Virus record (IMG/VR): IMGVR_UViG_2541047916_000002
Reading direction: 5' to 3' (one strand)
DNA from: a virus
Taxonomy: Duplodnaviria; Heunggongvirae; Uroviricota; Caudoviricetes
DNA: 24,000 nt
A program made the position numbers and the translations under genes. Positions 1 to 14,328 of this stretch are shown here, in pieces (the first letter of the stretch is position 1; every line of letters begins with the position of its first letter). The notes under the pieces are model-generated. The model had not been told where the DNA came from, searched no databases, and saw only the letters and a program-made list of their open reading frames with translations.

Positions 1-1254
1 ATGCTGGAACAAATGGGCATTGCCGCGAAGCAAGCCTCGTATAAATTAGCGCAACTCTCCAGCCGCGAAAAAAATCGTGTGCTGGAAAAAATCGCCGATG
101 AACTGGAAGCACAAAGCGAAAGTATCCTCAACGCTAACGCGCAGGATGTTGCAGACGCGCGTGCCAATGGCCTTAGCGAAGCGATGCTTGACCGTCTGGC
201 ACTGACGCCCGCACGGCTGAAAGGCATTGCCGACGATGTGCGCCAGGTGTGCAATCTCGCCGATCCGGTGGGGCAGGTAATCGATGGCGGCGTACTGGAC
301 AGCGGCCTGCGTCTGGAGCGCCGTCGCGTGCCGCTGGGGGTGATTGGCGTGATTTATGAAGCGCGCCCGAACGTGACGGTTGATGTTGCTTCCCTGTGCC
401 TGAAAACCGGTAACGCGGTGATCCTGCGCGGCGGCAAAGAAACCTGTCGCACTAACGCTGCAACGGTAGCGGTGATTCAGGACGCCCTGAAATCCTGCGG
501 CTTACCGGCGGGTGCCGTGCAGGCAATTGATAATCCTGACCGTGCGCTGGTCAGTGAAATGCTGCGTATGGATAAATACATCGACATGCTGATCCCGCGC
601 GGTGGGGCTGGTTTGCATAAACTGTGCCGCGAGCAGTCGACAATCCCGGTGATCACAGGCGGTATAGGCGTATGCCATATTTACGTTGATGAAAGCGCAG
701 AGATCGCTGAAGTATTAAAAGTGATCGTCAACGCGAAAACTCAGCGACCAAGCACATGTAATACGGTAGAAACCTTGCTGGTAAATAAAAACATCGCCGA
801 TAGCTTCCTGCCCGCATTAAGCAAGCAAATGGCGGAAAGCGGCGTGACGTTACACGCAGATGCTGCTGCGCTGGCGCAGTTGCAGACAGGCCCCGCGAAG
901 GTGGTGGCGGTTAAAGCCGAAGAGTATGACGATGAGTTTCTGTCATTAGATTTGAACGTCAAAATCGTTAGCGATCTTGACGATGCCATCGCCCATATTC
1001 GTGAACACGGCACGCAACACTCCGATGCGATCCTGACCCGCGATATGCGCAACGCCCAGCGTTTTGTTAACGAAGTGGATTCCTCCGCTGTTTACGTTAA
1101 CGCCTCTACGCGTTTTACCGACGGCGGCCAGTTTGGACTGGGGGCGGAAGTTGCGGTAAGCACACAAAAACTCCACGCGCGCGGCCCAATGGGGCTGGAA
1201 GCACTGACCACTTATAAGTGGATCGGCATTGGTGATTACACCATTCGTGCGTAA
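1..1254 (+). CDS. proA: gamma-glutamyl phosphate reductase (glutamate-5-semialdehyde dehydrogenase), complete 417 aa
   Basis: Full-length 417-aa ORF starting at base 1; the sequence is recognisable as enterobacterial ProA; position directly upstream of thrW matches the known proBA-thrW arrangement. Confidence 0.9.
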
Positions 1255-1258
1255 ATAA

Positions 1259-1327
1259 AACCGGGTGATGCAAAAGTAGCCATTTGATTCACAAGGCCAT
1301 TGACGCATCGCCCGGTTAGTTTTAACC
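1259..1327 (+). terminator. long inverted repeat after proA (ACCGGGTGATGC ... GCATCGCCCGGT) followed by AGTTTT; possible proBA terminator, may overlap the thrW promoter (TTGACG at 1298-1303)
   Basis: 12-bp inverted repeat with one mismatch read directly; the loop is long (about 33 nt), so terminator function is uncertain. Confidence 0.25.
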
Positions 1328-1368
1328 TTGTCCACCGTGATTCACGTTCGTGAACATGTCCTTTCAGG

Positions 1369-1444
1369 GCCGATATAGCTCAGTTGGTAGAGCAGCGCAT
1401 TCGTAATGCGAAGGTCGTAGGTTCGACTCCTATTATCGGCACCA
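1369..1444 (+). tRNA. thrW: tRNA-Thr (anticodon CGU)
   Basis: 76-nt cloverleaf GCCGATATAGCTCAGTTGGTAGAGCAGCGCATTCGTAATGCGAAGGTCGTAGGTTCGACTCCTATTATCGGCACCA with a CGT anticodon loop and CCA end; thrW is a known integration site for P4-type integrases. Confidence 0.9.
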
Positions 1445-1558
1445 TTCAAACATCTCCCCAAGTCTACTAAAGTCTTTCAAAACCCCTTATAATCCGCGTA
1501 TTAAAGCCCCGTTCGTCTTTTGACGTCTACTAAAGTCCCTCAAAATCTACGGTCAGAT

Positions 1559-1607
1559 GGGGGTACTTATGGGGGTATTTGCTGTTCGGTTTAGTGGAGG
1601 TACCCCC
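1559..1607. promoter_or_regulatory. putative integrase arm-type sites: GGGGGTA direct repeats (1559-1565, 1571-1577) and an inverted copy TACCCCC (1601-1607) between attL core and int
   Basis: Repeats read directly; the same GGGGGTA pair recurs at 22460-22478 on the island side of the right-end core. Confidence 0.3.
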
Positions 1608-1609
1608 AA

Positions 1610-2824
1610 GTGAAACTCAATGCCCGTCAAATAGACACAGCCAAGCCAAAAGAGAAGGCTTACAAGCTGGCCGATGGTGGCGGTTTGTATCTCTTGGTAA
1701 AACCTAATGGAGGTAAATACTGGCGACTTAAATATCGTGTAGCTGGTAAAGAGAAGCTATTGGCACTAGGTGTGTATCCTGAGGTTACTCTAGCCGATGC
1801 TCGGGCAAAACGTGAAGATGCGAAAAGAGGTATCGCTGGTGGTATCGATCCGATGGAAGCGAAACGAGAGGAAAAGATTGCCCGGGAAACGCAGTTAAAC
1901 AACACCTTCAAAGATATTGCCCTTGAGTGGCACAGCAGCAAATTAAAAAAATGGTCTGCTGGTTATGCTTCAGACATCCTCGAAGCCTTCAACAAAGATG
2001 TGTTCCCTTACATTGGCAAAAAACCAATCGCCGAAATCAAACCACTTGAACTTCTGAATGTGCTGCGGCGCATCGAGGGGCGCGGTGCGACAGAAAAAGC
2101 CAAAAAAGTGAGGCAGCGGTGCGGGGAAGTTTTCCGCTATGCAATAGTCACTGGTCGCGCAGAGTATAACCCTGCACCAGACCTTACTAGCGCGATGCAA
2201 GGCCATGAATCTAATCATTACCCTTTCCTTACGACCAAAGAATTACCTGATTTTTTCAAGGCATTGTCCAGTTACTCAGGAAGCGCATTGGTTGTTATGG
2301 CGGCTCGTCTACTGATTATCACCGGCTTGCGAACTGGCGAACTACGTGGCGCATTATGGGATGAAATTGATTTCAACAAGGCTATATGGGAGATACCCGC
2401 TTCACGTATGAAAATGCGGCGGCCTCATATTGTGCCATTGTCTGAGCAGGCTCTTTCGCTTATTGGGAAGATTAGAGAAATAACAGGCAATTACCCTCTT
2501 ATGTTTCCCGGGCGCAATGATCCAAGGAAAACAATGAGTGAGGCCAGCATAAACCAAGTGTTTAAGCGCATTGGCTACGCTGGACGTGTAACTGGTCATG
2601 GGTTCCGACACACTATGAGCACGATTTTGCATGAGCAGGGCTATAACACCGCGTGGATAGAAACGCAGCTCGCTCACGTTGATAAGAACTCAATTCGTGG
2701 CACATACAACCATGCGCAATATCTGGATGGACGGCGGGAGATGCTTCAATGGTATGCCGACTATATGGATTCTCTCGAGCATGGCGGAAATGTGGTGCAT
2801 ATGGTGTTTGAAAAACACGCATGA
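1610..2824 (+). CDS. tyrosine recombinase/integrase, P4 type (GTG start)
   Basis: 404-aa ORF next to the tRNA; the arm-binding N-terminus and catalytic C-terminus (RHTMST...HxxR...Y region) are typical of P4-like integrases. Confidence 0.85.
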   Translation: MKLNARQIDTAKPKEKAYKLADGGGLYLLVKPNGGKYWRLKYRVAGKEKLLALGVYPEVTLADARAKREDAKRGIAGGIDPMEAKREEKIARETQLNNTFKDIALEWHSSKLKKWSAGYASDILEAFNKDVFPYIGKKPIAEIKPLELLNVLRRIEGRGATEKAKKVRQRCGEVFRYAIVTGRAEYNPAPDLTSAMQGHESNHYPFLTTKELPDFFKALSSYSGSALVVMAARLLIITGLRTGELRGALWDEIDFNKAIWEIPASRMKMRRPHIVPLSEQALSLIGKIREITGNYPLMFPGRNDPRKTMSEASINQVFKRIGYAGRVTGHGFRHTMSTILHEQGYNTAWIETQLAHVDKNSIRGTYNHAQYLDGRREMLQWYADYMDSLEHGGNVVHMVFEKHA

Positions 2825-2910
2825 AACAACTGGACAAGTATACAGAGGTTTACTAAAGTATAGGGGAGTAGATTGATAAAAACTCACAGAGGATTGCTAT
2901 TTAACAGTTA

Positions 2911-2939
2911 GCCCTGGAGAAGGGCAATCGCTCTTTTAT
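2911..2939 (+). terminator. possible weak intrinsic terminator after int (GCCCT-GGAGA-AGGGC hairpin, then CTCTTTTAT)
   Basis: 5-bp stem hairpin with a T-rich tract 7 nt downstream; weak. Confidence 0.25.
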
Positions 2940-3251
2940 AAACGAAGGTGTATTGAGCCTTCTACGCTGCTGAAAAGCGGAATGTTCTTTAACAGGCTTT
3001 GGCGCTGACAAAGCGCAATTGTTCTTTAAAACTACTGGATGTCACGCCTAATAGCGTGATCCTGCCGAAATGCAGGGTAGCTCTACCCTTGTGGAGCAAA
3101 CAAACCAAAACAATCTGACTATCTTTTATAAAAGACCGCAATATGTTTTTCATATTGTGGTCTTTGGCGTATTCGACATTTGACGCAAATAAAACTCTCG
3201 CCATTCGTTGCAGGAGGGGGTTATTGCGTCATTAGTACAGGATATTAATAA

Positions 3252-3455
3252 ATGGCTAATTACAATTCATTAATTCGTCTCTCTGAAGTTCAAAGGCGAA
3301 CTGGTTATAGCAAAGCATGGATTTATCGTCTTATTAGTCAGGGGAGGTTCCCTAAACAGGTAAAAATTGGAAGTCGGGCAATTGCTTTTGTTGAGTCTGA
3401 AATAGATGAATGGATTGAGAAGTGTATATTAGAATCTAGAGACGAGGTGGCCTGA
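3252..3455 (+). CDS. alpA: AlpA/Vis-family DNA-binding regulator (prophage excision/transcription regulator)
   Basis: 67-aa protein with the AlpA-type HTH (LIRLSEVQRRTGYSKAWIYRLISQGRFP); sits just downstream of int as in P4-like elements. Confidence 0.8.
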   Translation: MANYNSLIRLSEVQRRTGYSKAWIYRLISQGRFPKQVKIGSRAIAFVESEIDEWIEKCILESRDEVA

Positions 3456-3886
3456 TGGAAAAGAAAAACCGCCCATTACAGGCGGCTAATTCAGATATTC
3501 GCGTATCTGATATTACGCCCCTTACAAAATCCCTTCAAGCACCAAAGCGCACACCGAAAAAGCATCGTGCCCGAGTCTATATGCTGCGTACTGGTATAGA
3601 GGGATGGACAGAAAATGACATTCTTCGCTACTGCCGTCTGTCTTCTGGTCGTAACTATGCAACAGAGTTAGAACGCCAGCTTGGAATCACTCTGGAGCGT
3701 ATCGACGAAAAGAATCCTGATGGTATCGGAACACACCTTCGCTACCGTTTCTCCTGCCGTGGTGATGTTCTGAAAGTGATCACTCATGTTAACCATCTTG
3801 CGAACATAAATGATCACAACGGACTTTCTCAGCAGGAAATTGCCGACATTCTGAAACTCTACCCGAACGCGTTTAACGCCGCCTAA
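3455..3886 (+). CDS. hypothetical protein (143 aa), basic N-terminus
   Basis: ORF with ATGA overlap onto alpA (translational coupling); no recognisable motif. Confidence 0.5.
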   Translation: MEKKNRPLQAANSDIRVSDITPLTKSLQAPKRTPKKHRARVYMLRTGIEGWTENDILRYCRLSSGRNYATELERQLGITLERIDEKNPDGIGTHLRYRFSCRGDVLKVITHVNHLANINDHNGLSQQEIADILKLYPNAFNAA

Positions 3887-3898
3887 CGGAGACTGAAA

Positions 3899-4732
3899 AT
3901 GAACATCGAAAAAAGCAGATTAATTTCTGAGGCCGCCCCTCATCTGAACGCCTCTCTGGGCACAATTAACGGTAATGAATTTGCCGCAATTGTCCCGGTT
4001 ATTCCTGGTCATATCGGTGGGCGTGAAACCAATATTGTTAGCGCAAAAGCGTTACACAAAGCGTTGGGCGTGGGAAAAGACTTCTCTACATGGATCACTG
4101 ATCGCATCTCTGAATATGACTTCACCATTGGGCACGATTACTCAGTCCATAAAACAATTTCCCCAAATTTGGGGAAAAGCCCGAATGGCGCGGCTTACAG
4201 CAAGATAAAGCACTCTGGCAGACCCGGCAAAGACTATCTGTTAAGTGTCGGAATGGCGAAAGAACTGGCAATGATCGAACGCAATGATCAGGGTCGCGCT
4301 ATCCGCCGTTATTTCATCCAGTGCGAGGAAGAATTACAGCGTAGCGTTCCTGAAATCGCCGCCCGCTATCGTCGCCAGCTAAAAGCCCGTCTCAGTGCCG
4401 CAAACAACTTTAAGCCAATGTGCGATGCGCTGAATATGGCCCGTGCCGAGATGGGTAAAACGACGCAGCAACACCACTACACAAACGAGAGCAATATGAT
4501 TTCTCGTATCGTTCTTGGTGGGCTAACTGCTAAGCAGTGGGCGCGGATAAATGGCTATTCTGGCGAACCTCGCGACCATATGAACGCAGAACAGCTTGAG
4601 CACCTCTCATATCTCGAAAGCACCAATATCACGTTAATTGATATGGGCATGGAATATGAGCAGCGCAAAGGAGAACTCACCCGCCTGTCGCAACGCTGGC
4701 TCGCCAAGCGTCTGGAGGCGCTCAATGTCTAA
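3899..4732 (+). CDS. AntA-domain phage anti-repressor-like protein
   Basis: N-terminal motif SAKALHKALGVGKDFSTWITDRI...YDFTIGHDY resembles the AntA/AntB anti-repressor domain; 277-aa ORF preceded by GGAGA. Confidence 0.55.
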   Translation: MNIEKSRLISEAAPHLNASLGTINGNEFAAIVPVIPGHIGGRETNIVSAKALHKALGVGKDFSTWITDRISEYDFTIGHDYSVHKTISPNLGKSPNGAAYSKIKHSGRPGKDYLLSVGMAKELAMIERNDQGRAIRRYFIQCEEELQRSVPEIAARYRRQLKARLSAANNFKPMCDALNMARAEMGKTTQQHHYTNESNMISRIVLGGLTAKQWARINGYSGEPRDHMNAEQLEHLSYLESTNITLIDMGMEYEQRKGELTRLSQRWLAKRLEALNV

Positions 4733-4904
4733 GCCAACAGGAACACCACAACCACAAAAACGCTACAAAGATGCCCACGGAGCACTCGTTACTGTCGAAA
4801 GCGTGTCTCACAACCGAGTGAGGTTTTATCGCGACGGGTATCAATCGCCATGCGTACAACCGCTGGCGCGTTTCATGAAGGAGTTCGCGGAGGTTAACCA
4901 ATGA
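4725..4904 (+). CDS. small hypothetical protein (59 aa)
   Basis: GGAGG 7 nt upstream of the ATG; 8-nt overlap with the stop of the preceding gene. Confidence 0.4.
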   Translation: MSKPTGTPQPQKRYKDAHGALVTVESVSHNRVRFYRDGYQSPCVQPLARFMKEFAEVNQ

Positions 4905-5302
4905 TACCCGTCCAGAAGAAGACATTTTCACTGGCTGGCATGTCGCCAAAATCCAGAAATATGACGGCAAAGTCAGGCATTAATACAGCAGATACAAGCA
5001 AAGTTTATCATTTGCTGGTGGTCGGAACGGATGCCTTAACCATACCAGAAATCTCGGGCGATGATATTAGCATTGAGAAGGTCAGCGGCTGCGCCAGAAA
5101 ATTTCTGGTCGTAGATGATGTCTTCCGCTCGTGTAGTGACTCCACAAAAACATTCGTCCACGCGCGTGACGTTAACGAAATGAGCGCGATGTACTGTGCT
5201 TCTGGTTCTTCCAATAGTGAGTTTTCGGAGTCCATAAAAAAGAGCTTGCCGTTATGCGGCAACACGGTTTATGGTTATAAGGCACCTCATAAAACGGGTG
5301 CC

Positions 5303-5531
5303 GGGTTTCGCAGCCCGGAAATGTACGAGGCGACACATGACGCGCCGAGCGTCTTTTTTTGTGCCGTTAGCCAGACTCACACTTTTTTCAGTGATGTGGT
5401 TATAATCCGCGTCGCTTGCAAAATTATGGTGGGCTGGACAGGGCAGCCGAAAGGCTGGCCGGTTTCCTTGTACGCCGGTACTGCGAACTCTGTTCAGTCC
5501 ACCACCAGCGAGTTTCGCAGCTCCGGTGGTG
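5303..5531 (+). promoter_or_regulatory. structured leader region: terminator, -10-like TTATAAT (5401-5407), GNRA-loop hairpin (5443-5456), three copies of a 16-nt motif (two direct, one inverted) and an 8-bp GC stem (5498-5505/5524-5531); possible P4-type RNA switch
   Basis: Motif GAGTTTCGCAGC(T)CCGG at 5303-5318 and 5509-5525; its near-complement CCGGTACTGCGAACTC at 5473-5488; all read directly. Confidence 0.3.
5339..5360 (+). terminator. intrinsic terminator-like hairpin GACGC-GCCGA-GCGTC followed by T7
   Basis: 5-bp GC stem plus seven T residues on the plus strand. Confidence 0.4.
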
Positions 5532-5562
5532 GGAAGAATTCCCAGTACAAGGAGGCTGCCAC

Positions 5563-5757
5563 ATGCTGGCTACTACCCCTACCCAAAAACCGCAATTTAT
5601 CTGGATTATCGCCGCAGTTCGCCGCGATTGCCCGACAATTACCGCCAAAATTCATCATATTGCTGCCGAGTCTGAACGCGATGCTCGCCGTTCTCTGGTG
5701 CGCGATCACGTCTGCTTTTTTGCTGGTCGTATCCGCATGGAGGTGGCACATGATTAA
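5563..5757 (+). CDS. small hypothetical protein (64 aa)
   Basis: Strong SD AAGGAGG 7 nt upstream of the ATG; first gene after the structured leader; lies in a different frame from the long 4901-5968 ORF, so assignment is ambiguous. Confidence 0.4.
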   Translation: MLATTPTQKPQFIWIIAAVRRDCPTITAKIHHIAAESERDARRSLVRDHVCFFAGRIRMEVAHD

Positions 5758-5968
5758 AACCTACGATGTGCATATGGATCCCCTCGAACGCACAAGCCAG
5801 ATCATCACACTGACAGAAGTGATTAACGACATTCTGGTGAGCAACTCTCCCTCACGAGACGAAAGACTGAAGGCGTTACTCGCGATATTGGATCTCGCCG
5901 TTCGTGACGTTCATTTCCTGCTGGAAGGTGGCGAAATGCCAGGAAAAACGGGGGCAACCAATGAATAA
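5750..5968 (+). CDS. small hypothetical protein (72 aa)
   Basis: GGAGGTG SD; 8-nt overlap with the preceding gene. Confidence 0.4.
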   Translation: MIKTYDVHMDPLERTSQIITLTEVINDILVSNSPSRDERLKALLAILDLAVRDVHFLLEGGEMPGKTGATNE

Positions 5969-6155
5969 CTCAATTAATGCCCCTCGACTTACGTCCGCAC
6001 TTCAATTAATCGAGCAAGCAGCGGCTGTCCTGGTTGCTGTCAGTCTTTCGGCTGAAGAAATGGACGCTGCTGATGTCGTGGATGCGATTAAAGCGTGCTC
6101 ATCTTTGGTTAACGATGCTCGTGCAGAGCTGGTAATTCTTGGTGGTGAAAAATGA
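5961..6155 (+). CDS. small hypothetical protein (64 aa)
   Basis: ATG overlaps the upstream stop (ATGAATAA); Ala-rich helical protein. Confidence 0.45.
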   Translation: MNNSINAPRLTSALQLIEQAAAVLVAVSLSAEEMDAADVVDAIKACSSLVNDARAELVILGGEK

Positions 6156-6415
6156 ATATCAACTTAATTTATCGTCATCCGTGTGAGCTGGAAATTGAAT
6201 CATTGCTGAGCCGTGAAGAGCCATATCCAGACACATTCACTCTTGCAGATCGCACGACTGAACGGCTTACCAGAGCGCGCACAGGTCTGGTTCATGTGAT
6301 GAATGAGATTCTTCCATCGGTGGGAGGGGAACAGGCGACAGTAATCACTAGCTGGCTACAAAAAGTTACCTCTCTGATAGATATCAGTTTAATCGATGCG
6401 GAGAGTGCGAAATGA
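6152..6415 (+). CDS. small hypothetical protein (87 aa)
   Basis: ATGA overlap with the upstream gene; ORF track. Confidence 0.5.
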   Translation: MNINLIYRHPCELEIESLLSREEPYPDTFTLADRTTERLTRARTGLVHVMNEILPSVGGEQATVITSWLQKVTSLIDISLIDAESAK

Positions 6416-6633
6416 CCAACATCCAGCTCATTGAAGCACAATGTCGCATCGAACAGGTTCAGACTGTTTTAGGGTTCTGGCTTGAAGGGGCCAGCCCCAG
6501 CAACAGAGACAAGTTAATGATTGGCGCGGTTATGTCACTGCTCAATGGCGTACCAGAAGCTATTCAGGAAGCAGACGAATTGTTGGGCAAATATGAGTTA
6601 CAGAATCATTCAGGCGAGGCGAAACATGAATAA
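6412..6633 (+). CDS. small hypothetical protein (73 aa)
   Basis: ATGA overlap with the upstream gene; ORF track. Confidence 0.5.
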   Translation: MTNIQLIEAQCRIEQVQTVLGFWLEGASPSNRDKLMIGAVMSLLNGVPEAIQEADELLGKYELQNHSGEAKHE

Positions 6634-7228
6634 TTTCTTAACTTTCCATGCAGAAGCAACGCCTGACGGCGTAAACATCATGTACCGCAGCAACGATGGC
6701 ATGACAGAACGCGTTGAGGCCGTCTCATATATTGATGCCGTAAATCGTCTGGATGCCGGGGATTATGACGATAAACCAGATGAAGGTATGTCAATACATC
6801 TCGCTATAGCCGATGGCGGCAACCAGGGATATTTCGATTACACATCACAGCATAACGTCATTATGTGGAGATGGCTGATCGCAACAGTATTCATGCTGGA
6901 AATGAGAGAGGAAAACGGCACTGTCAGCATCATTGATGATACTGGCAATCCTTCCGAAGTGGCTGTTTATTCCAACGGCATCGTCGCCATGCCGCTGTAT
7001 CCAGTAGCAGAGCGCCTCGCTATGGCAAACAACATTGAGGGCGCGATGATAGAACGTTTTGGCATCGAGTCTGGCACAGAACGCGCCATCATTTTCTACA
7101 GAGCCATGATGGATGTGGAACAAGGAGCACTGACTCCATTTGGTCGTGAAACGCTTGCTGAACTTCACAACAGCTTTATAGCTGAACTGAATGAAAACGG
7201 CATGCCAGCGGAACCAGTGACGCACTGA
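6626..7228 (+). CDS. hypothetical protein (about 200 aa; start chosen at internal ATG 6626)
   Basis: GAGG SD before ATG 6626; the longer ORF from 6521 would overlap the previous gene extensively. Confidence 0.5.
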   Translation: MNNFLTFHAEATPDGVNIMYRSNDGMTERVEAVSYIDAVNRLDAGDYDDKPDEGMSIHLAIADGGNQGYFDYTSQHNVIMWRWLIATVFMLEMREENGTVSIIDDTGNPSEVAVYSNGIVAMPLYPVAERLAMANNIEGAMIERFGIESGTERAIIFYRAMMDVEQGALTPFGRETLAELHNSFIAELNENGMPAEPVTH

Positions 7229-7238
7229 GGATGGAACC

Positions 7239-7580
7239 ATGATTACTAAAAATTTCCGACTGAATGCGCTGGCAAATAAGTATGCGTCGGCACTGTATAA
7301 CCACATTACCTCCACCAGCGGCGGGGACTATTTCATGGTTGATGCGGACGGCGAGGCCGTCCGTGTGGAAATCGTCAATGGAGTAAAAGGCGTTCGCAGC
7401 CTGATCGATAGCTACACACTGGCAGCCATGAAAGTGTTCTACCCGCAGTGGGAAACCGTGGGGATCGAGCTTCTTGATCGTTGCGTCACTAAGGACGGAT
7501 TGACTGACGTCGGGCGTGAGATATGGCAAAGCATGGTTAATGACATGGGCGCAACTGTAGCGGGAGGTTCTCATGCGTGA
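7239..7580 (+). CDS. hypothetical protein (113 aa)
   Basis: GAGGA SD; ORF track. Confidence 0.5.
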   Translation: MITKNFRLNALANKYASALYNHITSTSGGDYFMVDADGEAVRVEIVNGVKGVRSLIDSYTLAAMKVFYPQWETVGIELLDRCVTKDGLTDVGREIWQSMVNDMGATVAGGSHA

Positions 7581-7944
7581 AAATGCAGAAATGGCGCTTA
7601 GCTCCGCAATCGGAGAGCAGGTGGCAAAGATTGCTGGTGCTGTGTGGATTCATAACCTTCATTCTACTGGTGAAGAGAAAATGGCAATTCAGACGCCAGA
7701 GGGACGCACCATTACTACATCTCTGAAGCCGTCAGATGTTTGTGATCTGATTTGCGCATTCATGTACCCAGCAATGAGGACTGCCCACGGCGATAAGTGG
7801 AAACTTGCGACAACCGCTGAATTTGATATGTGGCTAAACAATGATGGCATGCTGACTGATTACGGAATAACCAAGTGGCAGATGCTGGTTAGCCATATCG
7901 CAAACGCTATAGACCACGTGGGGTACGGTGATGCGAAACATTGA
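7573..7944 (+). CDS. hypothetical protein (123 aa)
   Basis: GGGAGG SD; overlaps the upstream stop. Confidence 0.5.
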   Translation: MRENAEMALSSAIGEQVAKIAGAVWIHNLHSTGEEKMAIQTPEGRTITTSLKPSDVCDLICAFMYPAMRTAHGDKWKLATTAEFDMWLNNDGMLTDYGITKWQMLVSHIANAIDHVGYGDAKH

Positions 7945-10423
7945 TCTTATCCGTCAGGTTATCAGTGCGTCTGAAAACAACTGGCCTCATGTGCTGGGCT
8001 GCCTGAACATAAATGTCCCTGACTCTCCGCGCCGTCATGCTCCCTGCCCTGCATGTGGGGGCAAAGATCGATTCCGGTTCGATGACAACGGGCGCGGTAG
8101 CTTCATCTGTAATCAGTGCGGCGCTGGTGATGGGCTGGATTTAATTAAACGCGTAAATAACTGCGACACAACAGAGGCGGCGCTTCTTGCCGCTGATGTT
8201 CTGGGTATTGATTACCGGACAACGGAAACACCAGAAGCCACCAGCCAGAAACGGGAACAACTGGAAACCGAGCGCCAGCGACGCGAACAGGAGCGCCTGA
8301 AAAGGGCAGAGAAGGACGAACAACAAAGACGGGATACGTTTTCCCGTCAGTTTGATGACATGCGCAGAAAGGCTGTAAACGGCAAATCTGATTATCTGGT
8401 TGCGAAAGGGGTAGGTGATTTTACATTCCCCGTGTTGCCCGATGGATCTCTGTTGCTGGCGCTGGTGGATAAATCCGGCGCAGTAACAGCAGCACAGACT
8501 ATTACCTCACATGGTGAAAAAAGACTCCTGACAGGTTCAGCAAAGCGGGGGGCATATCACGCCATAAACGCACCAGAAACAACACAGAGCATCTTAATCG
8601 CAGAAGGGCTGGCAACGGCATTATCTGCCCATTTAATTCGTCCAGAGGCGCTGACAGTGGCGGCGATTGATGCCGGGAACCTGTTATATGTCGCCCAGGT
8701 ACTGCGGGATAAATTTCCTTCAGCACAAATCATCATTGCTGCGGATAACGACCACAGCGAAGGAAGACAAAACACGGGGAGAATAGCAGCAGAAAAAGCA
8801 GCTTTATCTGTTTCTGGATGGGTGGCATTACCCCCGACAGATCACAAAGCAGACTGGAATGATTACCACCAAAAACACGGCATTAAATGCGCCACAGAAG
8901 CGTTCAATAAGTCAATGTACCAACCACAGGGTAATGGCGTGAAACAGGAGCCACAGACCATTGAGGGAAGCGATTTTAAGGTTATGGATACCGACCCACT
9001 GAAACCAAGAATAGAAAGCCGCGAGGATGGTATTTATTGGGTATCTCCGAGAGCTGACAGCCAGAGTGGAGAAATCATCAATAACGAAAGCTGGTTATGT
9101 TCTCCGTTAAGCGTTATCGGTACTGGCAGAGACGATAAAGACCAGTATCTCATTCTTCGCTGGCTGTCGTTTGGTTCTGAAACGCCGACAACCGCTGCCA
9201 TTCCACTGGCTGATATTGGTGAACGTGAAGGATGGCGCACACTTAAAGCTGGTGGGGTAAATGTCACGACCAAAAGCAGCCTCAGAGCAATACTGGCAGA
9301 CTGGCTACAACGCAGTGGCTCTCGTGAATTGTGGCGTGTTGCTCATGCCACTGGCTGGCAATGCGGAGCGTACATCATGCCTGATGGGGAAATCATCGGA
9401 ACACCTGAAAATCCTGTGCTGTTCAGCGGGAGAAGCTCAGCCGCAGCCGGATATACCGTCTTAGGGAGCGCGAAAAGCTGGCGTGATAACGTGGCGCGTC
9501 TGGCCTTTGGTAACTATTCAATGATGACCGGGATCGGCGCAGCACTGGCAGCGCCATTGATTGGGCTGGTGGGCGCTGACGGGTTCGGCATTCATTTCTA
9601 TGAGCAGTCGAGCGCAGGTAAGACCACCACGGCAAACGTGGCGAGCAGCTTATACGGCAACCCTGATTTACTGCGGCTGACGTGGTACGGAACCGCGCTG
9701 GGGCTGGCAAATGAGGCCGCCGCCCACAATGACGGACTAATGCCGCTTGATGAAGTTGGTCAGGGCGCTGATCCTGTCAGCGTTTCACAGTCTGCCTATG
9801 CGTTATTTAACGGTGTAGGGAAACTGCAAGGCGCTAAAGATGGTGGAAACCGGGATCTAAAACGTTGGCGTACAGTGGCAATCAGCACCGGAGAAATGGA
9901 TTTAGAAACATTTATCGCTACTTCCGGGCGAAAAACCAAAGCCGGGCAACTGGTGCGACTGCTGAATATTCCGTTGAGTAAAGCAGTACGCTTTCACGAT
10001 TACCAGAACGGAAAACAGCACGCAGACGCACTGAAAGACGCTTACCAGCATCACCACGGCGCGTCCGGGCGTGAGTGGATTAAATGGCTGGCAGACCACC
10101 AGCAACAGGCTATTAAAACCGTTCGTGATTGCGAAAGCAGATGGAGAAGCCTGATCCCATCCGATTATGGTGAGCAGGTTCACCGTGTAGCCGCGCGATT
10201 TGCCATTCTGGAGGCCGCATTGTTGTTAGGCGAGGTTGTAACAGGCTGGGATGCTCAGACATGCCGTGATGCGATACAGCACAGCTATAACGCATGGTTG
10301 CGCGAGTTCGGCACAGGTAACAAAGAGCATCAGCAGATTATTGAACAAACGGAGGCATTTCTTAATGCCTATGGGCTTAGCCGTTTTGCACCATTTCCAT
10401 ACAGCCCGGCAGATTTGCCCATC
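7928..10423 (+). pseudogene. P4 alpha-like primase-helicase, N-terminal 832 codons, interrupted by an IS21-family insertion (the last two codons of the 833-aa ORF, 10424-10429, are IS-derived)
   Basis: Primase zinc ribbon (CPACGGKDRFRFDDNGRGSFICNQCGAGDG), Toprim (IAEG ... AADNDH), P-loop (SSAGKTT); the reading frame continues in frame at 12841 once the IS and one TSD copy are removed. Confidence 0.75.
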
Positions 10424-10488
10424 TATTAGACGTCAACTAGTTTTGCCGACTCGCGCCAACTATACTGGCCGCACCCTTCAGTGCGACA

Positions 10489-11244
10489 TCAAGTCGCGCT
10501 TGTTACTGCCTTCGCTGTCTTTTTCCTGTAGCTTTCACCTTTCAGTTCGAACATATATCCGTGATGGATCAGCCGGTCTGCCGCCGCCACCGCCATAGTC
10601 TCATCCACGAAGATGCTGCCCCACATGCTGAACGGATGGTTACTGGTTATCACCAGGCTCCCACGTTCATAGCGATGCGCTATTAACTCGAACAGTACTC
10701 CCGTTTCGGCGCTGTCGCGTTTGACATAGCCAAGATCATCCACCACTATCACCCGGTAGCGATCCAGTTTCAGTAGCAGCTCATTCAGTTTCAACTGCGC
10801 TCTGGCTTTACGTAGTTCCTGCAACAACTCTCCTGCGCTGTAGAACCGGGCCCGGTAGCCCTGGCCTACTACGCCATCCACGATCGCTGCCGCCAGATGG
10901 CTTTTCCCCAACCCGCTGGCTCCGAACAGCAGAACGTTTTCTCCTGCATCAACCCAGTCTGTCGTTTCACAGAGTTGCCGGAACTGAGCTCCATTCAGTT
11001 CCGGCACCTGACTGAAGTCGTATTCGCTTAGCGTTTTGGCAACTGGCAACCGGGCCTCCTTTTTATAACGACGCAGTTTTTCACTCTCGCGCCACAGGAG
11101 TTCTTCATTGCATAGCGTCAGAAGATAGCGCGATGGTGTCCAGCCTTCTGCCAGTGCTCGTTTTTCCAGAGCGTGCCATTCAGCTCCAACTCGTGTCAGG
11201 CGTAGTTTACGCAGGCTGCGTTCAAGGTGATGGATATTGCTCAC
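10489..11244 (-). CDS. istB: IS21-family ATP-binding helper IstB
   Basis: 251-aa ORF with Walker A GASGLGKSHLA; typical IstB size and position. Confidence 0.85.
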   Translation of the reverse strand: MSNIHHLERSLRKLRLTRVGAEWHALEKRALAEGWTPSRYLLTLCNEELLWRESEKLRRYKKEARLPVAKTLSEYDFSQVPELNGAQFRQLCETTDWVDAGENVLLFGASGLGKSHLAAAIVDGVVGQGYRARFYSAGELLQELRKARAQLKLNELLLKLDRYRVIVVDDLGYVKRDSAETGVLFELIAHRYERGSLVITSNHPFSMWGSIFVDETMAVAAADRLIHHGYMFELKGESYRKKTAKAVTSAT

Positions 11245-12740
11245 TGCGAACCTCCCTTGCCACGCAGTAGTTGCTCATAACTGCTCAGGTTATGCTGTTT
11301 CACATTGACTACCGGCAACGCCTTTTCCTTTATACCCAGGAAGCGCATCAGCCGGTGCAGATCCACGTTTCCCGGGGTATTCAGCATCTGCTCCATACCT
11401 TTTGCCACGACTGAGATATCGTCGTATCCTGCAGCCAGTTTCAGAGCATGTACCATCAGCCTGCCTGCCATGTCGGGTTCCAGATGATTACATAAGCGAC
11501 GCCACAGCCTCCGCCATTCATCGTCTGGCAGGATGTCATTTCTCAGCGTTGCATGGCAGAACGCACCGGGCTTTTTTGCCAGACTGTCGATCACATGTCG
11601 GAAGTCGATACGACGGGCCCGCGTCTTCCCTTTTTCTGGTCTGACACGTGGGCAGCTCATGACCTCGCTGCTGCCAACGTAACAGCTCAGACGATCGTCC
11701 CATAACCGGACCCGTAACAGTTGACCTACAAGCCGGGAAGGTACGCTGTAGACGACGTGCTTCACATTGATGGTACTGCTGCGGCTAACCCTCACAGTCA
11801 GCTCATCATAGTCAGCACTGCGACGAAGCGGCAGCGGTTTCAGATGAAGACGTTCTTCCTTGACCAGATCCTGATTGTTACGGTTGTGCCGCATAACCTG
11901 CTGAGTGATGAAGGCCTGATATTCTTCTATGGTGCTGAAGTCGTTACTGCCCCGCAGTATCAGCGCCTGACAGATACGCCTTTTCAGATGTCCGTGGGCA
12001 CTTTCAACCGAGCCATTTTCGTGGCCCCGACCGGCATTATTGTGTACGCCCTGCATTCCGTAGTGCTGACAGAGAGCAGCATAACGCTCAGTCAGCTCGC
12101 GGCGTCCATCTTCGCCCTGTTGTTTCCATGCTGCCCTCAGGCTGTCCGTTTTATGTTCTACCGGCACTCCGCCCAGTTGTCCGAGGGCTTCCTGCAGACC
12201 TTCAGCCAGAGCAGAGAAGCTCTCACCACCCAGCACAACCCGCATCCAGCTCCAGTGGCTCCATTCCAGACGGAAGTGATACAACTTATGCGCCAACAAC
12301 TTACCGGCGATGGTGACAACTACACCTTTCAGTTCAGTAAAGTCCGACAGACCTCGCAGACCGGGCTGATGTCGCTGGCGGAACATGACCTCCTGCTCTG
12401 CACCATACTGTAGCTTCCATTCGCGGACCCGCCGTTGCATTGTTCTTCGAAGGCTGTTGGGGTACTGGCCGGGATATTTATCCTGTAGCATCTCCAGCAG
12501 AGTTGTTGGTGTCAGAGCCGGCCTCTCTTTCAACAGAGGAACAAGCATGCTGTCCCACACAGCTTCCAGAGGATCTTTGCGTGTGCGCCAGTGCCGAACA
12601 CTGTTTTTTGCCCACTCTCCTTTTTCGATCCGACGACCAGAACGGACTGAGATACCAGCCTTCATGGCCGAGATATGCTGAGTTATACCTTTCTTACGCT
12701 GAGTCATATAGTAACTGACCTGAGAAGTATTGAGCGTCAC
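11241..12740 (-). CDS. istA: IS21-family transposase IstA
   Basis: 499-aa ORF with N-terminal HTH and a DDE-type core; 4-nt overlap with the downstream istB. Confidence 0.85.
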   Translation of the reverse strand: MTLNTSQVSYYMTQRKKGITQHISAMKAGISVRSGRRIEKGEWAKNSVRHWRTRKDPLEAVWDSMLVPLLKERPALTPTTLLEMLQDKYPGQYPNSLRRTMQRRVREWKLQYGAEQEVMFRQRHQPGLRGLSDFTELKGVVVTIAGKLLAHKLYHFRLEWSHWSWMRVVLGGESFSALAEGLQEALGQLGGVPVEHKTDSLRAAWKQQGEDGRRELTERYAALCQHYGMQGVHNNAGRGHENGSVESAHGHLKRRICQALILRGSNDFSTIEEYQAFITQQVMRHNRNNQDLVKEERLHLKPLPLRRSADYDELTVRVSRSSTINVKHVVYSVPSRLVGQLLRVRLWDDRLSCYVGSSEVMSCPRVRPEKGKTRARRIDFRHVIDSLAKKPGAFCHATLRNDILPDDEWRRLWRRLCNHLEPDMAGRLMVHALKLAAGYDDISVVAKGMEQMLNTPGNVDLHRLMRFLGIKEKALPVVNVKQHNLSSYEQLLRGKGGSQ

Positions 12741-12840
12741 GCCATTTCCTGTTGGATCATGTAAATGACACTCAGGTTACAAAACCGGCCAGAATAATCG
12801 GCGCCAGGCGGACTGAGTTATTGTCGTCTCATAGCCCATC

Positions 12841-13104
12841 AAAGATTTAGCCGGATACCGTCAGCGTGGAGAACATGACGAAAGCCCAATGATTTTCTAC
12901 ACATTCCCGGCCACATTTGAAAAGGAGATCGCATGTGGTTTCAACGCAAAACAGTTTGCTGAAGTGTTGAAAAAAGCCGGGATGCTAACCCCACCAAACA
13001 GCGGTCGTGGATACCAAAGAAAATCACCACGTATTCAGGGACGACAAATAAACGTTTATGTACTCAATTACCAGCCAGGAGATTATAACTCATCTGAAGA
13101 ATGA
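12841..13104 (+). pseudogene. C-terminal 87 codons of the IS-disrupted primase-helicase
   Basis: Open and in frame with the primase ORF across the restored junction (10423 joined to 12841); the ORF-track entry 12889-13104 is its ATG-started tail. Confidence 0.55.
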
Positions 13105-13129
13105 GCTTCTTCATGTGCGTAGAAAAGGT

Positions 13130-13240
13130 GTTGGTTCAGTTGGTTCAGTTGGTTCAATTTGTAAAGAGTATTGTTTTATAAGGATTTTATTCTTTTTATT
13201 GAACCAACACTGAACCAACAACACGGTATTTTGAACCAAC
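13130..13240. repeat. iteron cluster, putative island replication origin: 3x GTTGGTTCA, 43-bp AT-rich spacer, 3x TGAACCAAC
   Basis: Six 9-mers read directly, immediately downstream of the primase gene, as in P4/PICI-type ori arrangements. Confidence 0.55.
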
Positions 13241-13349
13241 ACAATGTGACTGAATTGATGCGCACAACACCTGGCTGGCATCAGAGAGTGTTTTACGAGA
13301 CTTTCGTAAAATCCTGTGTACAAGGGCGTGACGTTTTTGAAAGTGAGCA

Positions 13350-13366
13350 CTACGAAATTTTCGTAG
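13350..13366. promoter_or_regulatory. 17-bp palindrome CTACGAAATTTTCGTAG (putative protein-binding site)
   Basis: 8-bp arms around a central base; two related copies at 22149-22184. Confidence 0.3.
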
Positions 13367-13560
13367 TTCAAAAAACAGCCTCTGAGAAGTTGTTATGCCT
13401 GTTCAGCAAACCATCCGCATAGCTGATCGCGAATCAAATTACCAATGGAGCCAGAAGCAAGGGCAGAACTGAAAAGCGCCTGCCGTGAAGAGTAATGCGA
13501 CACCATAAATATAGTTTTTAGAGTCCATAAAAAACCTGTCAAAACCTGACACACAGAACG

Positions 13561-13593
13561 ATGCCACCAGCTACTGAGCGGTGGCATTTTTTT
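13561..13593 (+). terminator. intrinsic terminator (ATGCCACC-loop-GGTGGCAT followed by T7)
   Basis: 8-bp GC-rich stem plus a seven-T run; separates the ori region from the cargo module. Confidence 0.6.
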
Positions 13594-13688
13594 GTGCTAT
13601 TTGTTTCATATTTTGCAATTACGATGATGAATATTGCGATTTGTGAAACTATAATAACTGTTGTTTTATACAGTTCTAAGGGGGCGTT

Positions 13689-13850
13689 ATGGCTATTTCA
13701 GTAAAGCAGGTATTGATAAGTGAGAAGCAAATGGAAGCGATAAAGAAAATTCAGGAAGAGCAGCGTAAAAAATCAGGAATTGGAGTAGCGCCAACTCTGC
13801 ATGAAATTGCACGAGGGTTAATAGATAAGGCGCTGGCAGGCTGTATGTGA
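13689..13850 (+). CDS. small protein (53 aa), possibly a ribbon-helix-helix-type regulator
   Basis: Not in the ORF track (under 60 aa); AAGGGGG SD 5 nt upstream; TATAAT at 13650-13655; RHH assignment is a guess from size and predicted strand/helix pattern. Confidence 0.3.
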   Translation: MAISVKQVLISEKQMEAIKKIQEEQRKKSGIGVAPTLHEIARGLIDKALAGCM

Positions 13851-13866
13851 AAATGGATGGCATCGC

Positions 13867-14328
13867 ATGGAACTAAAATTTATTGATAACCCTGTGCGAT
13901 TACAGGCCTTTCTTAACGAGCCAGGCAATACCGAAAATATTGTTGAGCCGGGGCACACGTACTACATCAAGCCTGATGCGGTATATCTCGGCATCTACGA
14001 AGGATTAGTGCTGGCTGGCGTTCATGAAGTGCGTAACTTCTGGCATAGCGTTGTTGAATGCCATGCGGTGTACGACCCCGGATTCCGTGGTGAATATGCA
14101 CTGCAAGGGCATCGATTATTCTGCAAATGGCTTCTCGAAAACTCACCATTCCTTAACAGCATTACCATGGTTCCTGACACCACCAAATACGGACGGGCAA
14201 TTATCCGTTTGCTTGGCGCTACCCGTGTTGGTCACCTTGATGATGCTTATATCAGATGTGGTAAACCCGTCGGCGTAACGCTTTATCAGTTAACTCGGCA
14301 ACAATATAAGGAATTCAGCGAATGTTAA
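13867..14328 (+). CDS. hypothetical protein (153 aa), first gene of a virion-protein-like module (position equivalent to P22 gene 14)
   Basis: ORF translationally coupled to the next gene; no motif recognised. Confidence 0.45.
   Translation: MELKFIDNPVRLQAFLNEPGNTENIVEPGHTYYIKPDAVYLGIYEGLVLAGVHEVRNFWHSVVECHAVYDPGFRGEYALQGHRLFCKWLLENSPFLNSITMVPDTTKYGRAIIRLLGATRVGHLDDAYIRCGKPVGVTLYQLTRQQYKEFSEC

Follow-up and report, generated by a model that had tools for sequence, protein, structure and literature searches.

A probable antisense RNA immunity switch of the P4 CI/P1 c4 type in an EcCIMP1-like phage satellite

The region described here, part of a 24,000-nucleotide stretch of viral DNA (IMG/VR record IMGVR_UViG_2541047916_000002; below, the window), very probably provides an EcCIMP1-like phage-inducible chromosomal island (PICI) with its RNA immunity switch and is homologous to the PLE-seqA-CI-seqC-kil region of P4 and to c4-icd of P1. 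The kind of module is already known: an antisense RNA of the phage and satellite family that includes P4 CI and P1 c4, together with two target sites, silences replication genes. The parts of the module and the primase gene are all on the plus strand.

Rfam covariance models gave two full-length matches, both above the curated gathering scores (45 bits for C4, 50 bits for isrK). C4 (RF01695) scored 81.1 bits over 5422-5509 (model positions 1-87 of 87), and isrK (RF01394) scored 69.0 bits over 5282-5359 (model positions 1-77 of 77). The first family holds c4 of P1 and P7 and CI of P4, and isrK is a structural homologue of P4 seqA; the equivalence of IsrK with seqA and of C4 with CI has been described (PMC3632133; PMC4825925), and profiles for both RNAs match Gram-negative PICIs in work that also summarises the P4 mechanism (PMC10111431). 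P4 itself scored 74.9 bits with the C4 model, for CI, and 60.8 bits with the isrK model, the two matches (8420-8507 and 8615-8692) being on the same strand as the alpha operon. An earlier note, made from the letters alone, had suggested a switch of the P4 CI-RNA type and proposed a covariance-model search; that search was positive for both families, and the suggestion gains support from P4, whose alpha primase operon is preceded by the same two matches, arranged and oriented as here.

The predicted antisense RNA (5422-5509) has a 17-bp closing helix that encloses a GAAA hairpin (CAGCC-GAAA-GGCTG, 5444-5457), found as the GNRA-loop hairpin of the note, and a second hairpin (5458-5479) whose loop carries the segment b'. 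Its minimum free energy was -45.8 kcal/mol (z = -4.9), and the structure of minimum free energy was identical to the family structure. Among 51 distinct sequences the fold was 99.9% paired, compared with 33-53% for shifted controls, and 15 of its 27 pairs had changed on both sides, so that the alignment across related islands that had been proposed as a check yielded abundant compensatory changes. A CCA (5505-5507) lies directly 3' of the closing helix, which is compatible with processing to a stable RNA of about 77-80 nt, and the mature form probably extends from about 5427 to 5507. The 3' arm of C4, CCACCACC (5499-5506), can also pair with GGTGGTGG (5525-5532) in an alternative hairpin (5499-5532), the GC stem noticed earlier, with target a2 in its loop. 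Over 66 loci this hairpin was 96.0% paired (shifted controls, 32-65%), and both partners had changed in 5 of its 9 pairs.

The isrK/seqA-type leader RNA (5282-5359) consists, in order, of hairpin 1 (5282-5301), hairpin 2 (5302-5317) with target a1 in its loop, a single-stranded target b1, and an intrinsic terminator at 5339-5360, GACGC-GCCGA-GCGTC (GACGCGCCGAGCGTC) followed by T7, which a terminator scan found exactly where it had been placed before. Folded alone, the leader was no better than shuffles (z = -0.86); thermodynamics therefore gives no support to its fold, but covariation does, as the helices were 98.4% paired in 66 loci with both-sided change in 8 of 16 pairs. An outer helix round the terminator (5330-5336 with 5361-5367) was 92.2% paired, and 5 of its 7 pairs had changed on both sides. 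Just 5' of the isrK match, in the position of the P4 promoter PLE, is a putative promoter with a -35 hexamer TTGCCG (5246-5251), an 18-nt spacer and a -10 hexamer TATGGT (5270-5275), similar to those of P4 (TTGCCT ... TATAGT); transcription is predicted to start near G5282, and a loose TTGC[C/G]-N18-21-TAnnnT was present upstream of the leader in 54 of 78 distinct loci. Between the leader terminator and C4 there is a second promoter-like -10 element, TGGTTATAAT (5397-5406), which resembles an incomplete copy of the first promoter, the 9-mer TGGTTATAA being present twice (5272-5280 and 5397-5405); an exact TATAAT occurs in the leader-C4 spacer of 43 of the 78 distinct loci. A consensus promoter scanner called neither proposed promoter, its sole call being an unrelated weak site at 5073-5102. 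The PLE-like promoter was passed over because only 8 of its 12 positions match the consensus, and both candidates are therefore proposed from conservation and analogy with P4.

The 16-nt motif reported in two direct copies and one inverted copy is real, its positions off by 0-2 nt, and every element named with it was present in the sequence with minor errors in the coordinates. Copy 1, GGGTTTCGCAGCCCGG, lies at 5303-5318 as described, its second base being G and not A; copy 2, GAGTTTCGCAGCTCCGG, is at 5510-5526 rather than 5509-5525, the inverted copy, CCGGTACTGCGAACTC, at 5475-5490 rather than 5473-5488, and the TTATAAT at 5400-5406 rather than 5401-5407. Three occurrences of TTTCGCAG were counted in the window, a number reached by 13 of 100 shuffles and not beyond chance, and the count for GTTTCGCAGC with one mismatch was equalled by 36 of 100. 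Since these 8-mer and 10-mer counts did not rise above shuffles, the window by itself gave no grounds for rejecting chance. The repeat is non-random by virtue of its conservation: across 66 distinct homologous loci, changes at the three sites go together and leave them complementary.

The pairing scheme offered for this motif had recognised the a site and overlooked the b site, a second complementary pair, in which TCCTTGTAC (5465-5473) matches both GTACAAGGA (5545-5553) and GTACGAGG (5323-5330). We also observed that GTACAAGGA (5545-5553) overlaps a Shine-Dalgarno sequence. To judge from the sequence, pairing takes place at two sites, as in P1 c4, and the motif first seen represents the a site only. 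The two-segment (a', b') recognition scheme of P1 c4 is said to go back to Citron and Schuster in 1990. In the window, a' is the C4 junction segment CUGCGAA (5481-5487), the core of the inverted copy, which pairs with target a1, UUCGCAG (5307-5313, 7 of 7 pairs), and with target a2, also UUCGCAG (5514-5520). The loop of the second C4 hairpin contains b', UUUCCUUGUAC (5463-5473), which is complementary, with G-U pairs, to target b1, UGUACGAGG (5322-5330), and forms 9 Watson-Crick and 2 G-U pairs with target b2, GUACAAGGAGG (5545-5555), the latter overlapping the Shine-Dalgarno sequence AAGGAGG (5549-5555) of icd. In the 66 loci, a1-a' was 99.1% paired (both-sided change in 6 of 7 pairs; duplex -12.6 kcal/mol), b1-b' 93.1% (8 of 9; -14.9 kcal/mol) and a2-a' 99.6% (6 of 7; -13.5 kcal/mol). 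The variable part of b2 covaries with b', and the b2-b' duplex had an energy of -19.7 kcal/mol compared with -7.9 +/- 2.2 for shuffled targets; the four targets together ranged from -12.6 to -19.7 kcal/mol, with shuffled targets at about -7.5.

Each target pair offers 15 core pairs (7 in a and 8 in b); counting the flanking G-U pairs as well raises this to 18 downstream and 16 upstream. The downstream targets were 94.1% paired, compared with 34-44% in shifted controls, and the upstream targets 95.7%, compared with 35-47% (66 distinct loci in each case); all 15 core pairs could form downstream in 62 of the 66 loci and upstream in 56. The upstream a1/b1 site may act either as a target or as a decoy. 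A census of specificities in the same loci gave 10 a-types, 21 b-types and 31 combinations, an example unlike the window being ACGCCAA/CCAUUCGA in locus L004. Non-cognate combinations of a and b reached a mean of 10 of the 15 pairs, and 2% of them reached 14.

The switch stands immediately before icd (5563-5757; 64 aa), a gene like P4 kil that matches the NCBIfam model NF033153, phage_ICD_like, with 71.7 bits and is the first gene translated after the switch. In all 95 loci retrieved through this Icd-like protein there was one C4 match per locus, ending about 54 nt before the icd start codon, and the arrangement in the window is that of the C4 family, b2 lying over the icd ribosome-binding site with the ATG at 5563. 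The next small gene (5750-5968; 72 codons from sequence and ORF extents) has its own GGAGG (5740-5744), and its ATG precedes the end of icd by 8 nt. Further downstream is the presumed regulated target, a primase gene with zinc ribbon, Toprim and DUF927 domains by Pfam (7928-13104). It is split by an IS21-family element (10424-12834); a tblastn search with an intact homologue placed residues 1-831 before the element (7931-10423) and residues 830-918 after it (12835-13101).

A long ORF of 355 codons (4901-5968; ORF list and PGAP, 'ash family protein') begins with an ATGA overlap (4901-4904) on the stop of an upstream DUF4222 gene, spans the leader, C4 RNA and targets, continues over icd as a +1 overprint, and stops 211 nt beyond the icd stop, where the next small gene, whose frame it shares, also stops. 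Residues 124-232 (nt 5270-5596) match Pfam PF10554, Phage_ASH, with 99.7 bits (cutoff 26). The long frame was open in 72 of 73 distinct loci, P4 included, and the other frames had 1-8 stops. Within C4, however, where it was measured, amino-acid constraint on this frame was not detected: variability at codon positions 1, 2 and 3 was 0.77, 0.72 and 0.74, amino-acid identity was 0.55 in the long frame and 0.53 and 0.56 in the other two, and the 36 substitutions between the window and L004 in 88 nt were spread 13/10/13 over the codon positions. The earlier note had taken translation of 4901-5968 as one protein to speak against an RNA reading. This does not hold, because eta of P4, according to the account in PMC10111431 (citing Forti 1999), is a long translated ORF that crosses seqA and CI and forms part of the switch. 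The ORF in the window appears to be the counterpart of eta, a stop-free frame kept across the RNA genes, and probably serves to let translation from upstream override immunity.

In the window icd is not the in-frame C-terminal part of the long ORF, as its frame differs. Among the loci compared, icd was out of frame with the long ORF in 45, like the window, and in frame in 39, including P4, with at least 10 switches between the two classes on the icd tree. The +1 frame over icd was without stops in 41 of 41 out-of-frame genes, and it contained stops in 28 of 37 in-frame genes. We suggest tentatively, at somewhat less than even confidence, that the ash/eta ORF is a translation-only device in which the open frame is selected, carrying ribosomes over the terminator, the antisense RNA gene, the targets and icd, and the protein is not. 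In about half of the loci, the window and the functional PICI EcCIMP1 among them, a 1-nt shift ahead of the icd start takes the long frame out of register with icd, so that it overprints the whole of icd in +1 and is fused to the next gene. A broken ORF in functional EcCIMP1, where RefSeq has a pseudogene, was considered and rejected, the 355 codons being intact.

By homology with P4 and P1 the switch would work as follows, the RNA species and their ends, processing by RNase P, Rho dependence and the translational override all being modelled on those systems. A constitutive promoter within the long ORF would start transcripts near 5282. Some would end at 5360, and the remainder, perhaps aided by the second promoter near 5400, would form a precursor that RNase P and 3' trimming convert to a stable RNA of about 80 nt. 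This RNA would pair with a2/b2 of new transcripts and block icd translation, and the untranslated RNA would be terminated by Rho before the operon of small genes and primase, so that the resident island would not replicate; an incoming island would be repressed only if its a/b specificity were the same. After induction by a helper phage, the transcript of the upstream AlpA-controlled operon would be translated continuously through the ORF at 4901-5968, the terminator, C4 fold and target sites being melted by ribosomes, which would also shield the RNA from Rho, and the replication genes would therefore be read despite immunity. In this simple form the model leaves the conserved alternative helix and the outer terminator helix unaccounted for.

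Of the other explanations, the idea that the region is protein-coding only, 4901-5968 encoding an 'Ash family' protein that functions in the Bro network, with repeats and stems as by-products, would accord with the single 355-aa CDS called by PGAP, the 99.7-bit Phage_ASH match, the frame open in 72 of 73 distinct loci and the ATGA overlap on the upstream gene. The Pfam match, however, covers exactly both Rfam matches and the targets (nt 5270-5596), and within C4 codon-position variability and three-frame identity were equal; on these two tests a purely protein-coding explanation was rejected. Compensatory changes, within helices and between distant sites, are moreover inexplicable by protein constraint, and we regard this explanation as extremely improbable. 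Phage_ASH is largely a conceptual translation of two RNA genes.

Two further possibilities accept the RNA. In one, control would be translational only, as in P1, C4 blocking the icd ribosome-binding site and so lowering the expression of translationally coupled downstream genes, without transcription termination or override. The overlap of b2 with the Shine-Dalgarno sequence would fit, as would the start-to-stop overlaps of the downstream genes, which suggest coupling, and a P1-like phage in which C4 is followed by Icd at the same spacing; a frame that stays open throughout the module, but over icd solely in those loci where the two frames differ, is nevertheless hard to explain without translation from upstream, and we consider control of this restricted kind quite unlikely. 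In P1 itself, failure to translate icd takes effect by way of Rho-dependent polarity, and this possibility therefore largely merges with the main model. The other is activation of the type seen with IsrK of Gifsy-1, the short leader RNA (5282-5360) being the regulator and not a target of repression, and turning on downstream translation either in trans on the long transcript or by titrating C4 through a1/b1. Here the leader fits the isrK model and has an apparent promoter and terminator of its own, a1/b1 are no worse a match to C4 than a2/b2, which is what a decoy would show, and IsrK activates translation in Salmonella (PMC4825925). Yet P4 seqA, as summarised in PMC3632133, is needed to establish immunity and not to relieve it, and the leader showed no C4-independent complementarity to the icd region here, which makes such activation unlikely, although it is compatible with the RNA immunity switch and not exclusive of it.

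Compared with P4, whose CI RNA carries seqB and whose eta and kil are nested genes, the window has its homologous parts in the same order, beginning with a putative promoter and an isrK-type leader that ends in a terminator, followed by the C4-family RNA and its targets, and then by the icd/kil-like gene and primase; it also has the same two-site complementarity over the kil/icd ribosome-binding site, and a long ORF that likewise begins upstream, coupled to the preceding gene (the eta ATG overlaps the stop of ORF88 in P4, as the ATGA overlaps that of the DUF4222 gene in the window), and crosses the RNA genes. The two differ in a' (CUGCGAA in the window, UUCUCAC in P4) and b' (CCUUGUAC and CCUGUGAA, respectively), and in the leader-C4 spacer, which is 61 nt with TATAAT in the window and 106 nt without it in P4. 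The window's long ORF overprints icd out of frame, whereas P4 eta ends as Kil; further differences are the window's Toprim/DUF927-type primase, its gene set and its host element, a PICI. With immI of P1 and P7 (c4, targets a1/b1 and a2/b2, icd and ant) the window shares the RNA family, a'/b' recognition with b2 over the icd ribosome-binding site, and an icd start about 54 nt after C4, but here icd is followed by small hypothetical ORFs and primase and not by a coupled antirepressor ant. No isrK match above the cutoff was found in the P1-like phage examined. The IsrK sRNA/STnc1160 locus of Salmonella Gifsy-1 resembles the leader in fitting the isrK model, and short terminated and read-through forms would be expected (PMC4825925); lambdoid Stx phages also carry isrK and C4, and in an Stx1a phage, too, the two lie inside an annotated Ant CDS, that is, an ORF running through the RNA genes. 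The Gifsy-1 module differs in controlling an antirepressor and anti-terminator cascade, with IsrK as an activator, whereas the output in the window is a replication operon.

The island is 98.9% identical in nucleotide sequence, over window positions 1254-10423, to EcCIMP1, an E. coli satellite that has been mobilised experimentally as a PICI (PMC11773190). It has a tRNA-Thr (1369-1441), integrase, AlpA, AntA and primase domains (the AntA-family gene, 3899-4732, lies upstream of the module), genes in one orientation at the tRNA site and near-identity to a mobilised PICI, as is the pattern for Gram-negative PICIs, and thus appears to be an EcCIMP1-like PICI at thrW. EcCIMP1 (strain MP1, helper phage Kapi1) has the same site, proA-thrW, and the same gene order, and the C4 stretch compared (about 80 nt from the ATGGTGG start) was identical; the IS21-family insertion in the primase gene is present only in the window copy, where the switch may therefore now control a defective operon. 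The paper on EcCIMP1 gives the region only as 'Ash family protein', and the term sRNA is absent from its text (PMC11773190). Of 5426 complete E. coli genomes, 941 contained matches, and in RefSeq records the region is a 355-aa 'ash family protein', sometimes masking icd, with RNA gene annotation there absent.

Public annotation in practice hides a module that would decide whether a widespread E. coli phage satellite replicates. The 31 a/b combinations among 66 loci imply many mutually non-cross-reacting immunity types. These results confirm known P4 and P1 biology in a PICI and do not open a new question; the only new angle, a modest one, is the frame-shifted read-through ORF. If the ORF is indeed a translation-only device, its +1 overprint would override immunity without an Eta-Kil fusion.

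The earlier note had proposed that three copies of a 16-nt motif at 5303-5531 form a switch of the P4 CI RNA type, and comparison with RNA family models bore this out. The covariance-model search that it suggested, run against Rfam, identified a full-length C4 antisense RNA (RF01695) at 5422-5509, scoring 81.1 bits against a cutoff of 45, and a full-length isrK RNA (RF01394) at 5282-5359 (69.0 bits against a cutoff of 50); the window element agreed with both families in all membership criteria that gave a clear outcome. In phage P4, C4 was matched at 8420-8507 and isrK at 8615-8692, in the same order as in the window and on the strand of the alpha operon. Folding, also suggested in that note, gave C4 a structure identical to the family model (-45.8 kcal/mol, z = -4.9), in which a 17-bp helix closes off two internal hairpins. 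In published work C4 is treated as the equivalent of P4 CI RNA, and IsrK as that of P4 seqA (PMC3632133, PMC4825925); the window element and the immunity region of P4 are homologous.

All of the elements listed in the earlier note were found in the sequence, with coordinate errors of 0-2 nt: direct copies of the motif at 5303-5318 (GGGTTTCGCAGCCCGG, in which base 2 is G, not A) and 5510-5526 (GAGTTTCGCAGCTCCGG), an inverted copy at 5475-5490 (CCGGTACTGCGAACTC), a GAAA hairpin at 5444-5457, the stem arms CCACCACC/GGTGGTGG at 5499-5506/5525-5532, TTATAAT at 5400-5406 and the intrinsic terminator of the leader at 5339-5360. As bare words the repeats were not rarer than in shuffled sequence, so the case for function comes from the family models and from comparison, not from motif statistics. 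The motif that had been proposed to pair is site a, and it is complementary to both of its targets as claimed; a second complementary site, b, had been missed. Within C4, a' (CUGCGAA, 5481-5487), at the junction, pairs with a1 (UUCGCAG, 5307-5313), in the loop of leader hairpin 2, and with a2 (UUCGCAG, 5514-5520), whereas b' (UUUCCUUGUAC, 5463-5473), in the loop of C4 hairpin 2, pairs with b1 (UGUACGAGG, 5322-5330), just 5' of the leader terminator, and with b2 (GUACAAGGAGG, 5545-5555), which overlaps the icd Shine-Dalgarno sequence AAGGAGG (icd ATG at 5563). Recognition by P1 c4 likewise uses two sites. Predicted duplex energies were -19.7 (b'-b2), -13.5 (a'-a2), -14.9 (b'-b1) and -12.6 kcal/mol (a'-a1), compared with about -7.5 +/- 2.2 kcal/mol for shuffled targets. 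The icd-like gene (5563-5757; NF033153, Icd-like protein) lies directly 3' of the module and corresponds to icd of P1 and kil of P4.

For comparison, 99 loci were fetched via the Icd-like protein, and 89 of them were searched with a purpose-built C4 model along with the window, P4 and four E. coli islands. Exactly one C4 match was obtained in each of these 95 sources, its end lying about 54 nt 5' of the icd start. Compensatory changes, which the earlier note had proposed to look for, were present in the C4 helices and in both antisense-target pairings. Over 51 distinct C4 sequences, 99.9% of helix cells were paired and 15 of 27 pairs had changed on both sides, against 33-53% paired in shifted registers; in an alignment of 66 sequences over the full module, pairing of C4 with the downstream targets reached 94.1% (34-44% when shifted) and that of the upstream targets with C4 95.7% (35-47%). 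The leader helices covaried as well (98.4% paired). What the sequence and its comparison show are the parts of the module, with their complementarity and covariation. Two further helices are outside what a simple model explains. The 3' strand of the helix that closes C4 (5499-5506) can instead pair with GGTGGTGG (5525-5532) in an alternative stem that places a2 in a hairpin loop; this stem covaries (96.0% paired, 5 of 9 pairs changed on both sides) and might play a part in processing, in presenting the target or in a structural switch. An outer helix (5330-5336 with 5361-5367; 92.2% paired, 5 of 7 changed on both sides) encloses the terminator of the leader together with its T-run and could form in read-through transcripts only.

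The module lies within a long ORF (4901-5968) that RefSeq gives as one 'ash family protein', and the Pfam Phage_ASH match (PF10554) to residues 124-232 covers nt 5270-5596, precisely the stretch holding both RNA genes and the targets. Over the 282-nt module this frame was free of stops in 72 of 73 distinct loci, among them P4 (other frames, 1-8 stops), and within C4 it had none in 51 sequences, against 24 and 25 of 51 with stops in the other frames. Measured within C4, the encoded sequence is unconstrained as protein: variability at codon positions 1, 2 and 3 was 0.77, 0.72 and 0.74, and amino-acid identity was 0.55 in this frame and 0.53 and 0.56 in the others. Between the window and comparison locus L004, the 88 nt of C4 carried 36 substitutions, split 13/10/13 over codon positions, and the adjoining icd none. 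With no codon-position bias and equal identity in three frames within C4, pure protein coding of 4901-5968 was rejected; what PF10554 describes corresponds to the isrK leader, the C4 RNA and their targets in conceptual translation.

Two layouts of the ORF were found. The long frame is continuous with kil/icd in 39 loci (P4 and 38 others); in 45 (44 besides the window) the icd start is moved by 1 nt, and the long ORF overprints icd in +1 and runs on into the next gene, with whose stop it usually ends. Read in +1, icd was stop-free in 41/41 shifted genes but had stops in 28 of 37 in-frame genes. On the icd tree the two layouts are intermingled, with 10 or more changes from one to the other. RefSeq treats the same intact 355-codon ORF inconsistently (window, L001, L002, L004 and L109, the last being EcCIMP1 of E. 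coli MP1): in some genomes it is one CDS masking icd, in others a pseudo-'ash' fragment beside an Icd-like CDS, and none of the records examined among these annotates an RNA gene in the module. In EcCIMP1, a functional island, the ORF is unbroken, though called a pseudogene there. In a Stx1a-converting phage (LC567819), isrK and C4 matches at 2003-2191 fall within an annotated 'phage antirepressor Ant' CDS (1775-2797), so an ORF running through the RNA genes occurs in a lambdoid phage too. Of all these observations, the frame-shifted read-through ORF is the one that is mildly new.

As summarised in PMC10111431, P4 eta is an ORF coupled to an upstream alpA homologue and containing PLE, seqA and CI, whose translation prevents termination. 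The long ORF matches this summary, and its ATG at 4901 overlaps the DUF4222 stop as that of eta overlaps the ORF88 stop. The earlier note had held that translation of 4901-5968 as one protein, if demonstrated, would argue against an RNA switch; in view of the frame findings and the likeness to eta that argument does not apply, the frame being open in RNA modules including that of P4, and translation and RNA function probably coexist.

By analogy with P4 and P1, transcription would be constitutive from about 5282 and would stop at the leader terminator or read on. RNase P would excise the C4/CI RNA, with trimming of its 3' end; CCA is present at 5505-5507, directly after the closing helix. The RNA would then bind a2/b2 of new transcripts and block icd translation, upon which Rho would end transcription upstream of the primase operon. 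On helper induction, AlpA-driven transcripts would be translated through 4901-5968, disrupting the structures and shielding the RNA from Rho. Translational control without termination would largely merge with this model, and a role of the leader as a Gifsy-1-type activator or decoy would be compatible with it.

A promoter-like sequence (TTGCCG-N18-TATGGT, 5246-5275) matches in position the TTGCCT...TATAGT before the P4 leader, and a second -10-like element (TGGTTATAAT, 5397-5406), between the leader terminator and C4, repeats a 9-mer of it; both candidates fell below the threshold of the promoter scan. As TGCCGTTA (5247-5254/5362-5369) and TGGTTATAA (5272-5280/5397-5405) each occur twice, the spacer element seems to be an incomplete second copy of the leader promoter. 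A leader-C4 spacer of 61 nt was found in 60 of 78 distinct loci and an exact TATAAT within the spacer in 43, neither being shared by P4. On the minus strand, 5246-5262 reads as a terminator-like hairpin (TTGCCGCATAACGGCAA) then a T-run (GCTCTTTTTT), overlapping the -35 proposed for the leader promoter; the plus strand shows an A-run there, then a hairpin.

The host island (tRNA-Thr, integrase, AlpA, AntA, DUF4222, module, small ORFs, Toprim/DUF927 primase; window 1254-15135) is, over 1254-10423, 98.9% identical to EcCIMP1 of E. coli MP1 (NZ_CP139039) at proA-thrW, a PICI that has been mobilised experimentally and in whose description the module region is given only as 'Ash family protein' and the term sRNA is not used (PMC11773190). 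Of 5426 complete E. coli genomes, 941 contain similar sequence. An IS21-family element (10424-12834), with IstB-like (10489-11244) and transposase-like (11241-12740) genes on the minus strand, splits the primase gene after residue 831 of 918 into fragments at 7931-10423 and 12835-13101, and the window copy is probably replication-defective. Also present in the island are genes of DUF2824 (13867-14328), P22 gp7 (14322-14975) and P22 injectosome translocase (14975-16396) type, as would suit a P22-like helper, for example Kapi1; a 701-aa ORF that follows (16396-18501) had no Pfam match.

Elements of this kind are known already, and their occurrence in Gram-negative PICIs, which match the C4 and isrK profiles, has been stated in print (PMC10111431). 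The window differs from P4 in its specificity, its 61-nt spacer with TATAAT, the replication genes controlled and its shifted long frame, continuity with kil being a defining feature of P4; unlike P1, it lacks an ant gene downstream. Among the 66 loci, 10 a-types and 21 b-types reassort to give 31 combinations, and the a-type of the window was rare (3/66). All 15 core pairs were formed in 62 loci downstream and 56 upstream, compared with a mean of 10/15 in non-cognate combinations. Window 5246-5562 and L004 2547-2863 differ by 95 substitutions in 317 nt, against 0 in 195 nt of the adjoining icd, making the cassette a mosaic hot spot. Such divergence beside an unchanged icd suggests exchange or diversifying selection of specificity.
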